Shown here: positions 42,347 through 47,638 of the stretch, piece after piece | Layout of the letters: each line of letters starts with the position of its first letter | How positions within the stretch are numbered: position 1 is the stretch's first letter | From: Cyclobacteriaceae bacterium | GTDB taxonomy: Bacteria > Bacteroidota > Bacteroidia > Cytophagales > Cyclobacteriaceae | DNA: 64,000 nucleotides | NCBI GenBank assembly: GCA_965278925.1 | Contig: OZ257123.1 | Coordinates: forward strand, 2,880,753 to 2,944,752 | Direction: 5' to 3' | The notes under the pieces: generated by a model | What the model saw: only the letters and a program-made list of their open reading frames with translations | Told to the model about the DNA's origin: nothing | Databases searched by the model: none | Position numbers and translations under genes: made by a program

Positions 42347-43516
42347 TTGAGTTCTGATCGTTACAATCAACGTGGTGTTTCTGCCAGCAAAGAAGATGTG
42401 CACCTGGCTATTAAAAATCTGGAAAAGGGATTGTTTCCTCAGGCATTCTGCAAAATTGTACCCGACTGGCTGGCTGGCGATCCTGAGTTTTGCACCGTGA
42501 TGCATGCTGATGGAGCTGGCACAAAATCCTCTCTTGCCTACCTGTACTGGAAAGAAACCGGAGACCTGTCGGTATGGAAAGGCATTGCGCAAGATGCCAT
42601 CATCATGAACATTGATGATTTATTATGCGTGGGTGCAACAGGGCCAATCTTACTCTCCTCCACGATAGGCAGAAACAAAAATCTTATTCCTGGCGAAGTA
42701 ATTTCAACAATTATCAACGGCACCGAAGAAGTGCTGGCTATGTTGCGCCTGCATGGCATGGAAATCTATAGTACCGGTGGCGAGACGGCCGATGTGGGCG
42801 ACCTCGTGCGCACCATTATCGTGGATAGCACCGTTACTGCGCGTATGAAACGTAGCGATGTAATCGATAATAAGAATATTCAGGCGGGCGATGTGATTGT
42901 GGGTTTGGCCTCTTACGGAAAAGCTACTTACGAAAGTGAATACAATGGTGGCATGGGCAGCAACGGACTTACCTCAGCCCGGCACGATGTGTTTGCCCAT
43001 GAGTATTCAGCAAAATATCCGGAGACTTTTGATAAGGCCGTACCTGATAATCTGGTTTACTCGGGAAAATATAAAGTGACGGATGAAGTTCCGGATGTAC
43101 CTCTAAATATCGGAAAGCTGGTGTTATCACCTACACGCACCTATGCGCCAGTTATCTTAAAAGTATTGGAAGAACTTCGTGCGCACATTCATGGCATTGT
43201 ACATTGCAGCGGAGGAGCCCAAACCAAGGTGCTGCACTTTATTGAAAACCTGCACGTAGTTAAGGACAATCTGTTTGATGTGCCCCCGCTTTTTAAGTTG
43301 ATACACGAATGCTCGGGCACCGACTGGAAAGAGATGTACAAAGTGTTTAACATGGGGCACCGTATGGAGATTTATTTGCCGGAAAAGTTTGCCGAACAAG
43401 TAATCGACATTTCACAATCGTTCGGAATTGAGGCGCAGGTGGTTGGCAGGGTTGAGGCTAGTTCTGCAAAAAAAGTTACACTCAAAACCCATCACGATGA
43501 GTTTGTTTATCCGTAG
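42347..43516 (+). CDS. purM: Phosphoribosylformylglycinamidine cyclo-ligase (AIR synthase, Bacteroidota type)
   Basis: RYNQRGVSASKEDVH, HADGAGTKS, GGETADVGD, GMGSNGLTSARHD, HCSGGAQTK, VFNMGHRMEIY. Confidence 0.88.
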   Translation: MSSDRYNQRGVSASKEDVHLAIKNLEKGLFPQAFCKIVPDWLAGDPEFCTVMHADGAGTKSSLAYLYWKETGDLSVWKGIAQDAIIMNIDDLLCVGATGPILLSSTIGRNKNLIPGEVISTIINGTEEVLAMLRLHGMEIYSTGGETADVGDLVRTIIVDSTVTARMKRSDVIDNKNIQAGDVIVGLASYGKATYESEYNGGMGSNGLTSARHDVFAHEYSAKYPETFDKAVPDNLVYSGKYKVTDEVPDVPLNIGKLVLSPTRTYAPVILKVLEELRAHIHGIVHCSGGAQTKVLHFIENLHVVKDNLFDVPPLFKLIHECSGTDWKEMYKVFNMGHRMEIYLPEKFAEQVIDISQSFGIEAQVVGRVEASSAKKVTLKTHHDEFVYP

Positions 43517-43621
43517 ATTTTAAAAAAGTTAAGTCAAGTAAGATTATCTAGCTGATTTATTCTTATCTTTCCTATCAGACGGATATGTGGGGAGAATCAA
43601 CACTGCTAATCAAGGCTCCTT

Positions 43622-43915
43622 ATGAAATCAGATACCAATAAGTTCGGTCCCTTTTTCGATCTTCCTCTGATTGTTGGCAATGCCCTCCCGGTAACAATTG
43701 AACCTAACGGAAAACTGACGCTAGATACAGATTTGTGCGAAGGAGCGAATTATTGGATAATACTTTATACTGAAGGTAAAGAAGAGTTTTTACGGATTTT
43801 AGCTACAGAGCCACAGATTGTGGAATATACCAGTATAAGTGGGATTGATTTGCTGGTTACCCATTGGAAGGAAGTGGAAGGGCAAATTGTTCAGTGTGAC
43901 TTAACGATTGATTAA
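43622..43915 (+). CDS. Hypothetical protein, 97 aa, no signal peptide
   Basis: ORF track; first gene of a tightly packed four-gene unit. Confidence 0.65.
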   Translation: MKSDTNKFGPFFDLPLIVGNALPVTIEPNGKLTLDTDLCEGANYWIILYTEGKEEFLRILATEPQIVEYTSISGIDLLVTHWKEVEGQIVQCDLTID

Positions 43916-43921
43916 ATAAGT

Positions 43922-43996
43922 ATGGCAATAAGGACACGGGTAACGACTACTTCAGCTGGAGGAACTGCAACCACTACTACTGTAAATTCCGCATAA
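43922..43996 (+). CDS. 24-aa Thr-rich peptide MAIRTRVTTTSAGGTATTTTVNSA (not in ORF track)
   Basis: ATG 43922 to TAA 43996. It matches the C-terminus of 43998-44411 at 13/21 residues without gaps, and 8 of those 13 use different synonymous codons. A at -3 of the start. Confidence 0.7.
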   Translation: MAIRTRVTTTSAGGTATTTTVNSA

Positions 43997-43997
43997 A

Positions 43998-44411
43998 ATG
44001 AAACAGCTGGTTTTAATTTTCATTTTTATACTCAATGCCCTTTTTGCACATAGTCAAGGTGAATTTCAACATGAGGTTTCAAAAAGAAAATTAGTTCTTC
44101 ATGATTTTACCGGCACAAATCTCAATTTTGAAATTGACTTGGGCGAGAGCAAGCACACATCAGTATCTATTTATATAACATATAACGATGGCTCCGAGCA
44201 GGAAACCATTTTTATTAAAGATGATCTGGCTCTTCAAAAAGCAACATCTAACATTAAATCAATTGTCATCCGGCATAAGAAACGGTTTGGTCTAAGATTC
44301 AACCAAAAACTAAACGATAATGAAAAAGCTAAACGGAAGATCAATCGGGTAAGGGTTTCTTCAGAAACAGCCGGAGGTAGCTCAACAACTACCACAATAA
44401 ATTCCGCATGA
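43998..44411 (+). CDS. Secreted hypothetical protein, 137 aa, with RVRVSSETAGGSSTTTTINSA tail
   Basis: Signal peptide MKQLVLIFIFILNALFAHS; ATGA overlap with the downstream CHAT gene. Confidence 0.75.
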   Translation: MKQLVLIFIFILNALFAHSQGEFQHEVSKRKLVLHDFTGTNLNFEIDLGESKHTSVSIYITYNDGSEQETIFIKDDLALQKATSNIKSIVIRHKKRFGLRFNQKLNDNEKAKRKINRVRVSSETAGGSSTTTTINSA

Positions 44412-47400
44412 TCTCAAGGCTTAAATACGCGAGTTTTTCACTGCTGTTTATTAGCAGTTTAGGACAAGCACAAATTGAGCAATTAGAAAGAAACTTCGAA
44501 ACAGAAAATACAGCGGCCGCTGCGTTTTATCTCAAATCCTTAACAAATCCAATCGAGCACGCACTGTTTGAGGCTGAGCTTTTCTTTCTTGAAGGAAATT
44601 ATAAAAAATCCCGAGAAATACTGCTCCTCCATAAAAATCAGTTTACTTCAAATCGTGAAAAAGGTAAGTTTCACCTTTTGATGGCCATGCTGGATCATAA
44701 GCAGCAGAATTATCCAGAATCAATTAAAGGATTTGAACTGGCCGAGAAACTTTTTGAAATCTGCAAACCAAAAGATAATCTTCTCGCGCAACTAAATTAT
44801 TGGCGCGGGTATGCGCTTCTTGAACAAAAGAAGTTAGAACTATCAGAACAAAACCTACTTAGCGCTTTGAAATTTTATCAACAAGATTCACTTCGCTTTT
44901 TTACAAAAAATGCAAAATTATATTTCTGGTTAGGGACTGTCAAGAACGAAGAACAAGACTTCGATTCTTCAATTTACTTCCTTAAAAGGGCTCTCCGTAC
45001 TTTTGAAAACACTCCACTTGACAAGACCAGGGAGATTGTAAAAATTCATAACAATTTAGGTAATTCTTATGCAGCTATATGGAGCTATAACGAGGCCGTA
45101 AATAATTATCAGAAGGCAATTCAATTAAATAAGGATAAAATCGGAGACCCTATAGAGTTAGCGAATGCATGTTCAAACCTAGGATTATTCTATAATACCT
45201 TCGAAAATCACTTGCAATCTGAGTACTGGTTTAATCAAGCATTTCTATGGATGCAAAAAAGTAACATCGACCCCATAAGGAGAACAATGATACTTCAGAA
45301 CTATGGCGCTTGCTTAGCTAATCGGTATGAGTTTCAAGAAGCGCTTTCAACCTACTTTCAAGCGCTACAAATCGTTACTCAGTATAAAGAAGACCGTGGC
45401 GATATCTATACTCAACTCCTACTCAATATTGCTACAGCCTACAGTAACCTTGACTTGGCATCCAAAGCCGAACCGTATAAGGCTATGGCCAATGAATTTT
45501 TTATTAAGAATAAGGGAAAGTGGCCTAACGAGTATAATGCCTGGCGGCTGTGGGAGGCAATTAGTTTGCGGCAAAATGGAAATTTGGAGACCTCATTGAA
45601 AATCTTACAAGAACTTGAAATTTATTATTCGAAAATTAATACTGATAAATTTTTTGAAGTTGAAAAGCAAAAGGCGATTTGTTTTAATAATCTCAAGCAA
45701 TACGCAGAAAGTAGAAAATACTATGATCAATTGTTGATTCATTTCAAGAAGTTATTTCCAGACTCCCACCCTCAAATAATTTATCTTCTAAATGATCTTG
45801 GTTCATTGTTCGTAAAAGAAAAACAATATGATTCAGCTGGCTATTATTTTCGGTTGGCTAAACAAAATAATCAATTAGCTTCTACGGAAATTAAATCTAA
45901 TCAACTATACGCCTCAAAAATCGAATGGATCGTATCTAACTACTATTTACACATGATTGACCAAAAGAAGTTCACTACCGGTCAGTTATCAGTTGAAGAA
46001 TTACAACAATCTGAAGGCTTGATCTACTCCACTTTATCTGTAATAGAATCCAAACGCATTGAGTTTCGGAACGACCAGGACATCACCAACCTGTATCGTA
46101 TGACGCGCGATTTTTTTGACGAAGCCATGAAGTATTATTTTACACTCTACAACCATACGGGAGACAAACAATACATCGACAAAGCCTTTTTTATTTCCGA
46201 AAAATCAAAATACCAAACTCTGCAAAATGCTATAAAGTTAGATCGGGTCAATGCCTTTGCCGGAGTGACTTCAAAAATAATGGCCGAAGAGCAAAAGCTG
46301 GTAAAGCAAGTGGCGCAATTGGAGTATCAGTACTCACAAGAATTGGCGAAGCAGGAGGAACCTTTGCCCGAACTTGTGCAAGAGTATATCACACAATGGC
46401 GCACCAATTCAAATCGCCACAACGAACTTGTGGATTCTATTAAAAACAACTTGCCGGATTATTATAACCTCAAGTTTAATCGGTCAACTACCGAAATACA
46501 TCAGATACAAAACAGCTTTCTTTCCAACAACCAGGATATGGCCTGGGTCTCTTATTATGTGGGCGAATCTGAAAGCTATGCGATTGCTATCACCCACAAC
46601 GACAAATATTTTATTAAACTTGATGGTGCTGAAAAAATTACGCGACAATTAAAATCATTCAATAATTATGTAAGTCATCAAATGAATAGGGAATTGCAGC
46701 AAGCTTCTTTTGAACTTTACAAAGGGTTGTTTCAAGCTGTGGATAGCTGCTTTCGATTACATTCAAAAAAAATAAAAAAGGTTGTTATTATACCCGATGG
46801 GCCATTGAATTATCTCAACTTCGAACTACTTGGTAAACCCGTTAATAAATCGTGGCATTACGCACTTTACGATTATCAGTTTTCGTATGGATATTCTTCT
46901 ACTTTGTTATGGACAGAGTTTTCAGATCAGCAGAAATGGAATGTGAACACAACCAGTATGGTTGGTTTCGCACCTGAGTTTGTGCGCGGCTCGGGTCCGC
47001 TGATGAACGAATCCACCCGCGAAGGTTCAGAAAAACCCGGATACGATTCATTTGATTTCAGTCCGCTCCAAAAAAACCAGGATGAAGTTGTTCAGGTGGC
47101 TGAGATTCTAAAGCAGAAAAAAATCAAGACGGCTGTTTTTTTAGGGCCACAAGCCGATGAGGCTTCATTCAAAAAAGCTAATCTTGGGTCGTATAATATT
47201 ATACACCTTGCCACACATGGTTTTGTTTCAAACCAATCACAAAATGTGGCGGGTATCGCCTTTGCAAAAAATCAAAACTCATCCGATGATGGCATTCTTT
47301 ACATGGACGAGATTTTCTCATTAAAAAACAAAGCTAATCTTGTTTGCTTGTCGGCATGCGAAACAGGAAGCGGAATATTTCAAGAAGGAGAAGGACTTGT

Positions 47401-47629
47401 TGGACTAACCCGGGCGTTTATTTATTCGGGAGCACAAAATCTTGTGGTGTCTTTATGGAAAGTACAAGATGAAAGCACCGCGCAATTAATGACTCATTTT
47501 TACTCTGCCTTAGTAAAAAATCATTCTGTTTCGCAATCCCTGCATGATGCTAAAATTGCGATGATTAAAAAAAATCCAACTCTACCACCTTATCATTGGT
47601 CGGCTTTTGTTCATGTTGGCTTAAACTAG
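44408..47629 (+). CDS. Exported TPR-CHAT domain protease (caspase/separase-like clan CD)
   Basis: Signal peptide; multiple TPRs (IHNNLGNSY..A...YQKAI); CHAT motifs IIPDGPLNYLNFELL, IIHLATHG (His), LSACETG (Cys), EGLVGLTRAFIYSGA, VVSLWKVQD, PYHWSAF. Confidence 0.92.
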   Translation: MISRLKYASFSLLFISSLGQAQIEQLERNFETENTAAAAFYLKSLTNPIEHALFEAELFFLEGNYKKSREILLLHKNQFTSNREKGKFHLLMAMLDHKQQNYPESIKGFELAEKLFEICKPKDNLLAQLNYWRGYALLEQKKLELSEQNLLSALKFYQQDSLRFFTKNAKLYFWLGTVKNEEQDFDSSIYFLKRALRTFENTPLDKTREIVKIHNNLGNSYAAIWSYNEAVNNYQKAIQLNKDKIGDPIELANACSNLGLFYNTFENHLQSEYWFNQAFLWMQKSNIDPIRRTMILQNYGACLANRYEFQEALSTYFQALQIVTQYKEDRGDIYTQLLLNIATAYSNLDLASKAEPYKAMANEFFIKNKGKWPNEYNAWRLWEAISLRQNGNLETSLKILQELEIYYSKINTDKFFEVEKQKAICFNNLKQYAESRKYYDQLLIHFKKLFPDSHPQIIYLLNDLGSLFVKEKQYDSAGYYFRLAKQNNQLASTEIKSNQLYASKIEWIVSNYYLHMIDQKKFTTGQLSVEELQQSEGLIYSTLSVIESKRIEFRNDQDITNLYRMTRDFFDEAMKYYFTLYNHTGDKQYIDKAFFISEKSKYQTLQNAIKLDRVNAFAGVTSKIMAEEQKLVKQVAQLEYQYSQELAKQEEPLPELVQEYITQWRTNSNRHNELVDSIKNNLPDYYNLKFNRSTTEIHQIQNSFLSNNQDMAWVSYYVGESESYAIAITHNDKYFIKLDGAEKITRQLKSFNNYVSHQMNRELQQASFELYKGLFQAVDSCFRLHSKKIKKVVIIPDGPLNYLNFELLGKPVNKSWHYALYDYQFSYGYSSTLLWTEFSDQQKWNVNTTSMVGFAPEFVRGSGPLMNESTREGSEKPGYDSFDFSPLQKNQDEVVQVAEILKQKKIKTAVFLGPQADEASFKKANLGSYNIIHLATHGFVSNQSQNVAGIAFAKNQNSSDDGILYMDEIFSLKNKANLVCLSACETGSGIFQEGEGLVGLTRAFIYSGAQNLVVSLWKVQDESTAQLMTHFYSALVKNHSVSQSLHDAKIAMIKKNPTLPPYHWSAFVHVGLN

Positions 47630-47638
47630 TCTTATAAA

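Follow-up and report, generated by a model that had tools for sequence, protein, structure and literature searches.

The 97-residue protein (here A) and the 24-residue peptide that are encoded in one frame, on either side of a single TAA, at positions 43622–43996 of a Cyclobacteriaceae chromosome are, with high confidence, the products of two separate, translated and conserved genes of one rare operon, and the frame that they share carries no meaning. Positions are those of the window, by which we mean the whole stretch of 64,000 nucleotides of contig OZ257123.1 (assembly GCA_965278925.1) that was analysed. Downstream of a purM-like gene (42347–43516, + strand), four tightly packed genes follow each other on the + strand: A, the peptide gene, a gene for an exported protein with a tail of the same type as the peptide (B), and a gene for a protease of TPR-CHAT architecture; the four are referred to below as the cassette. 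The open reading frame (ORF) of A (43622–43915, +) specifies 97 residues with the C-terminus ...QCDLTID and is closed by the TAA at 43913–43915. This stop, together with the 6-nucleotide spacer ATAAGT behind it (43913–43921, +), precedes the ATG of the peptide gene (43922–43996, +), whose 24 codons encode an Arg-Thr-Arg-Val head and a Ser/Thr-rich tail with the end VNSA. Since the spacer reads ATA AGT, joining A and the peptide yields 124 codons in a single frame. Exactly this layout had been described in an earlier reading of the letters alone (the sequence-only reading) and is borne out by the sequence; to explain it, that reading had offered stop read-through, a recent nonsense mutation, or a duplicated gene whose tail has become a gene of its own.

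The comparison that decides between these options is the one with related genomes. The gene order A / peptide / B / TPR-CHAT is identical in eight lineages of one Cytophagales genus whose DNA was read, namely this genome (G000), G651 (loci L009/L046), G701 (L050), the OLB12 group (L010/L011/L013/L049), G650 (L053), G572 (L014/L052), G021 (L012) and G600 (L048). Each lineage carries A, an ORF of 23–25 codons that opens at an ATG of its own, a homologue of B that bears a signal peptide (all signal-peptide calls on A, B and the protease were made by eye) and a TPR-CHAT gene, and A, peptide and B are never found apart among the eight. The spacer between the stop of A and the ATG of the peptide measures 3, 3, 5, 6, 8, 10, 16 and 28 nucleotides; the peptide lies in the frame of A in three of the eight lineages (G000, G572 and G021), which is about the chance rate, and out of it in the other five, and members of both kinds occur in each of three subclades. 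Programmed read-through of the stop codon, or a recoding of the selenocysteine type, would produce a 124-residue fusion of A and peptide, and it can point to the common frame here and in two other lineages. However, the two are out of frame in both nearest relatives, G651 (A 78% identical) and G701 (A about 72% identical), seven lineages close A with TAA and one with TGA, two TAA stand directly in tandem in G651, and an ATG heads the peptide in all eight.

A recent nonsense mutation that split a fused gene, and left the peptide behind as a pseudogene fragment, would likewise account for the common frame and for nothing else. Its expectation, a fused relative, is contradicted by all A homologues found. 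A profile search with A through 1.84 billion cluster representatives returned 13 hits, of which 11 are true members of the family and the other two are spurious long repeat proteins; all 11 of these remote homologues are 97–114 residues long and lack a Ser/Thr-rich tail, as do the A copies of the other cassette lineages, and the peptide is moreover under purifying selection (see below). Full-length A homologues all end a few residues past the motif QC(D/N)L, one 99-residue copy excepted. This copy, P0009 (L011:6001–6318, CP058703, from the metagenome-assembled genome (MAG) SSA6), is an A homologue with an undetermined base, and its divergence past residue 79 is probably an assembly or gene-calling artefact. 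Homologues are therefore always split and never fused, the opposite of the situation in which the sequence-only reading would have regarded the free peptide as just a pseudogene fragment. Because the frame is not conserved, the peptide has its own ATG and the homologues are split, both explanations are rejected: read-through is very improbable, and the probability left to a recent nonsense mutation is negligible. The remaining option, in which the tail now forms a gene of its own, agrees with these observations if the split is an old and stable state, although the paralogy of the A body with the B body, on which that option was built, is not demonstrated. The peptide starts at its own ATG, probably by translational coupling across the spacer of 3–28 nucleotides. 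Genome annotation should call two genes at this site, and the in-frame TAA that had seemed a puzzle is an ordinary stop codon.

When considered on its own, the peptide ORF behaves as a real gene under purifying selection: in five pairwise comparisons the ratio of non-synonymous to synonymous substitution rates (dN/dS) is 0.12–0.26, at dS values of 0.8–2.1. The gene is systematically missed by automated annotation; for related MAGs, the protein databases hold the A and B homologues and have no entry for the peptide.

What the peptide is matched to is the C-terminus of its downstream neighbour. B (43998–44411, +) is an exported protein of 137 residues in which a signal peptide is followed by a beta body of seven strands, a disordered basic linker and a tail, the latter consisting of Arg-x-Arg-Val and a Ser/Thr-rich stretch with the end INSA, and thus of the same type as the peptide. 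By BLASTP, 13 of 21 residues are identical between the peptide and the C-terminus of B, and the hypothetical read-through product matches B in this tail only; no further copy of the tail motif was found elsewhere in the 4.42-Mb single-contig genome. Across the lineages, the common pattern comprises a head of the form Arg-x-(Arg/Lys/Thr/Ser)-(Val/Ile), a Ser/Thr-rich stretch and a fixed kind of ending, and it co-varies within genomes. The peptide of each genome ends more like that genome's own B than like the B of other genomes, the pairs of endings (peptide/B) being VNSA/INSA, ITST/VTST, VNSA/VNSA, VVSA/VVAT, VVST/VVAT, VTST/VTST, ITST/ITST and VTST/VTST. When the pairing is permuted, an identity between peptide and B as high as that observed over the last 12 residues arises in only 2 of 40320 arrangements, a figure that overstates the independence of the data, as the lineages are related. 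Even within the closest pair, G000 and G651, the tail type differs in both genes simultaneously. Where residues of the peptide and of the B tail are identical, the codons differ at 53 positions and are the same at 26, which argues that the likeness is maintained in the protein and does not stem from recent gene conversion. It is selection on the amino-acid sequence that keeps peptide and B tail similar in each genome. As a separate matter, the B homologue of G600 (L048:1100–1150, minus strand) is interrupted at a run of 8–9 A and its tail continues in another frame; this out-of-frame tail still matches the G600 peptide, and the interruption is either a homopolymer assembly error of the MAG or a fresh frameshift.

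The tail co-varies within genomes, and the simplest reading of this is that a single co-evolving partner governs both tails, for which the last gene of the cassette is the obvious candidate as far as B is concerned, since both of these proteins are exported. The protease gene (44408–47629, +) encodes 1073 residues and its start overlaps the stop of B in an ATGA, an arrangement present in four of five loci examined, the fifth showing a gap of 2 nucleotides; from the stop of the peptide to the start of B, the distance is -1 to 15 nucleotides. The protein matches Pfam CHAT (PF12770) with 195.4 bits (cut-off 24, E 1.9e-57) as well as several TPR families, among them TPR_12 (2.2e-22), and its N-terminus is a signal-peptide-like segment of roughly 20 residues, followed directly by the TPRs. 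Such an N-terminus is seen in B and in the CHAT protein of all lineages and in A of none, and the peptide of this genome is equally devoid of it. The motifs HLATHG and LSACET, which are taken to contain the catalytic His and Cys of the CHAT family, respectively, are kept in six full-length orthologues, and judging from this conservation the protease is probably active. A sequence search of the PDB with the protease yielded TPR designs only and no solved CHAT relative.

It is important to stress that TPR-CHAT proteins as such are common in this bacterial family. They were matched in 124 of its 151 genomes (a tally that includes the unpublished genome G533, which no result given here relies on), often several times per genome, and G000 itself has four TPR-CHAT places, the cassette and three paralogs (one of them at C1:1356320–1358167), the latter being about 30% identical over the CHAT half. 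The family as a whole shows a large expansion of TPR-CHAT proteins. No Ser/Thr-rich tails were found beside other TPR-CHAT paralogs at 30 loci in the family; the tails thus belong to one orthologue group.

Extended peptides and C-termini are common ligands of TPR domains, and proteases of clan CD often cut beside basic or small residues. Against this background, the tail, with its basic Arg-x-(Arg/Lys)-Val head, its Ser/Thr-rich strand and its small last residue, may be a handle recognised by the TPR half, and the exported CHAT protease would cleave in or next to the basic head or the linker. For the free peptide, the obvious candidate partner is A, which is always adjacent and cytoplasmic; as a cytoplasmic beta-sandwich, A would bind the peptide, and the two together would form a two-piece counterpart, inside the cell, of the B body with its tethered tail. 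That the tail serves as a recognition and cleavage tag for the exported protease, with A as the partner of the free peptide, is a tentative proposal that we hold to be rather less probable than the opposite. Taken as a whole, the account of two genes, a matched pair of tails and a cassette organised around them is somewhat favoured as the best explanation of the locus.

Several points weigh against this functional proposal. Models that bring protease and peptide together suffer chiefly from the fact that the peptide has no export signal and both B and the protease have one, so that contact between peptide and protease needs a step that is left unexplained, and the signal-peptide calls are, as said, visual. 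The sequences are too few for an analysis of covariation between tail and TPRs, and the relatedness of the lineages reduces the force of the permutation figure. Furthermore, the AlphaFold2 models are of A and B singly, and the B model is of low confidence, with a predicted local distance difference test (pLDDT) of about 40 in the tail.

Other roles for the matched tails can be considered. In one of them, A and the peptide would make up a naturally split beta-sandwich, that is, a cytoplasmic receptor with a strand-like ligand, mirroring B; the protease would cut the linker of B, the tail would be released or exposed outside the cell, and A would read either this tail or its cytoplasmic twin. 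We regard this elaboration as improbable, but if true it would represent a new protease-gated circuit of peptide signalling or self-recognition in Bacteroidota. Slightly more remote still is the notion that peptide and B tail give rise to a natural product or signal peptide, akin to ribosomally synthesised and post-translationally modified peptides, which CHAT would release at the basic head and whose Ser/Thr residues might be modified. A short Ser/Thr-rich core behind a conserved basic site, where Gly-Gly is often found, and an adjoining protease are what such a system would show; however, scans with Pfam, NCBIfam and PADLOC recover only TPR and CHAT and no modifying enzyme or transporter in the cassette, the flanks are syntenic housekeeping genes, and Gly-Gly is not conserved in G021, G600 and G572. 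Finally, the composition of the peptide resembles that of the E. coli thr leader (thrL), which would suggest a Thr-rich attenuator leader. This can be practically dismissed, as the interval of -1 to 15 nucleotides before the start of B leaves no room for alternative hairpins and it is the amino-acid sequence that is conserved and matched to the B tail, not the codon content. A scan for promoters and terminators was uninformative, since it relies on the sigma-70 consensus while the genome is of the Bacteroidota type.

The tag proposal leaves aside where A and the peptide came from, and here the question is whether the bodies of A and B are related. The sequence-only reading had judged the joined 124 codons roughly colinear with mature B and had called for a profile or structural comparison of the 97-residue and 137-residue proteins. 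The A family, in an alignment of 13 sequences, conserves the motifs GPF, YW(I/V)I(L/I/V)Y, THW and QC(D/N)L, and the B family has 6–8 members. Compared with hhalign, the two families give a probability of 0.1% with 4 and 3 sequences and of 0.3% (E 0.23) with 13 and 8, the E-values ranging overall from 0.2 to 0.5; the bodies hence show no significant profile–profile similarity, in keeping with BLASTP, which aligns the tail only, and with the A profile search of 1.84 billion sequences, which recovered no B-like protein. The best local match nevertheless pairs A 22–56 with B 32–72, the very stretch that had been picked out by eye. Its local score, 12.1 with B trimmed to the mature body, lies slightly above those of 28 nulls, for which the B alignments were reversed and cyclically shifted (mean 9.4, standard deviation 0.7, maximum 11.3), and the global score of 2.3 falls inside the null range.

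The predicted structures are no more than weakly suggestive of common descent. AlphaFold2 folds A (pLDDT 87.2) into seven strands at residues 22–26, 30–35, 44–50, 55–61, 66–71, 75–85 and 88–91, and B (pLDDT 58.4) also into seven, at 24–28, 31–35, 41–47, 54–62, 69–73, 77–82 and 86–95, after which the B model continues with the disordered basic linker and a low-confidence terminal strand (131–136) that is paired according to DSSP. Under the register of the sequence-only reading (offsets of +10 and then +13), six strands of A coincide with strands 2–7 of B, and a His is retained in the same late strand of both, in THWK of A and RHKK of B. Both models are thus predicted seven-strand beta-sandwiches, but of a generic kind: searches of the PDB with Foldseek and VIA-align 2 returned nothing more specific than common beta-sandwiches (FlgD, pilin, GOLD, cupin and CBM domains), all below the noise level of the tool, four weak entries (5azw_B, 1gzt_A, 6b8w_B and 3kls_A) being common to the VIA-align 2 lists of A and B. 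The colinearity of the bodies that was seen by eye lacks statistical support. Pfam, NCBIfam and PADLOC, run on A, the peptide, B and the joined 124-codon product, gave nothing for the peptide and no accepted family for A, with only sub-threshold matches of B to Rib and of A to RT_I-B in PADLOC, and a search of the ESM Atlas with A gave no usable match.

Two histories can be set against these data. In the first, which concerns origin only and is compatible with the tag proposal, a B-like gene was duplicated, and the duplicate, having shed its signal peptide, was severed within the disordered linker long ago, leaving A as a naturally split beta-sandwich and the peptide as its free last strand. 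The matching seven-strand predictions with six coincident strands, the local hhalign match in the same register, slightly over its 28 nulls, the His kept in the same late strand and the four weak fold entries common to both proteins are consistent with it. In the second, the duplication in front of B took in no more than the 3' end of B, and A, a gene of unrelated descent, stood upstream by chance or was recruited later; this fits with the lack of significant sequence similarity between the bodies and with the tail being the sole demonstrably common element. Against such a chance association stand the facts that A, peptide and B never come apart in the eight lineages and that A is confined to genomes with the cassette: it is present in 9 of 177 genomes of the genus, only in those that carry the cassette, and absent from 400 further genomes of the order, and a search of 5.8 billion clustered proteins produced a single close A homologue. 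This distribution ties A to the cassette at least functionally. All things considered, a partial duplication has a little under an even chance; the paralogy of the two bodies is a possibility that we would not bet on, and the same holds for the origin of the cytoplasmic counterpart by ancient fission of a duplicated B-like gene.

Some known systems share features with the cassette. In the Craspase of type III-E CRISPR, Csx29 acts with the nearby substrate Csx30, and in the cassette, too, a TPR-CHAT protein with intact His and Cys motifs stands beside small plausible substrates. In contrast to Craspase, the cassette is not adjacent to Cas7-11/gRAMP, a CRISPR array or a sigma factor, its protease has a signal peptide, and its partner proteins are unrelated in sequence. 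Cas proteins are absent from the cassette of every lineage, the neighbours being the purM-like gene, DUF2721 and an S9 peptidase. The anti-sigma factor DdvA of Myxococcus xanthus carries a periplasmic TPR-CHAT domain (PMC11506125), and the two have in common that this architecture is placed outside the cytoplasm. DdvA is nonetheless a transmembrane protein that has a zinc-binding domain in the cytoplasm and whose active site is incomplete, whereas the protease of the cassette is made up of just a signal peptide, the TPRs and a CHAT domain in which both catalytic motifs are present. An anti-sigma domain and a transmembrane helix ahead of the TPRs are thus missing from it, and neither an ECF nor any other sigma factor gene is adjacent. 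The cassette is an uncharacterised variant of the theme in which a TPR-CHAT protease is associated with partner proteins.

Analogies of a looser kind concern the peptide. In heterocyst-forming cyanobacteria, PatS and HetN combine a tiny peptide gene and a larger protein with the same short motif, with the CHAT-family protease HetF taking part in the process; these genes are not known to form an operon, and their motif RGSGR is unrelated and their receptor HetR binds DNA, so that this is an analogy only. A small beta-sandwich with a separate strand-like peptide is likewise what SpyTag/SpyCatcher (derived from a CnaB2 domain) and pilin domains consist of, split pairs whose halves reassemble through strand complementation, and pilin and SpyCatcher entries are among the weak fold matches of A. 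A search of the literature on CHAT proteins with peptides or precursors found nothing relevant. Outside CRISPR, the substrates and ligands of TPR-CHAT proteins are almost unknown, and a cassette with two candidate tagged partners offers a compact and testable case: a 24-codon gene that is kept matching the tail of a secreted neighbour, always between the gene of a cytoplasmic, predicted beta-sandwich and that of B with its exported caspase-like protease.

With regard to its genomic setting, the cassette (43517–47638) is a presence/absence block of roughly 4 kb at a syntenic site. In G000, G651, the OLB12 group and G572, it is flanked by the purM-like gene on one side and, on the other, by a gene for DUF2721, for an S9 peptidase or for both. 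In the five genomes of the same genus that were checked and do not carry it (L054–L058), a DUF2721 or S9 peptidase gene begins no more than about 600 bases past the purM-like gene, which it directly abuts in three of them, a small unrelated ORF standing in between in the other two. Syntenic housekeeping genes make up the flanks, and they are adjacent also where the cassette is absent. The purM-like gene encodes a protein of 389 residues of the AIR-synthase type, which scores 114.6 bits against the NCBIfam purM model (cut-off 236); it is 73–81% identical across the genus and looks like a divergent Bacteroidota PurM, not a part of the cassette.
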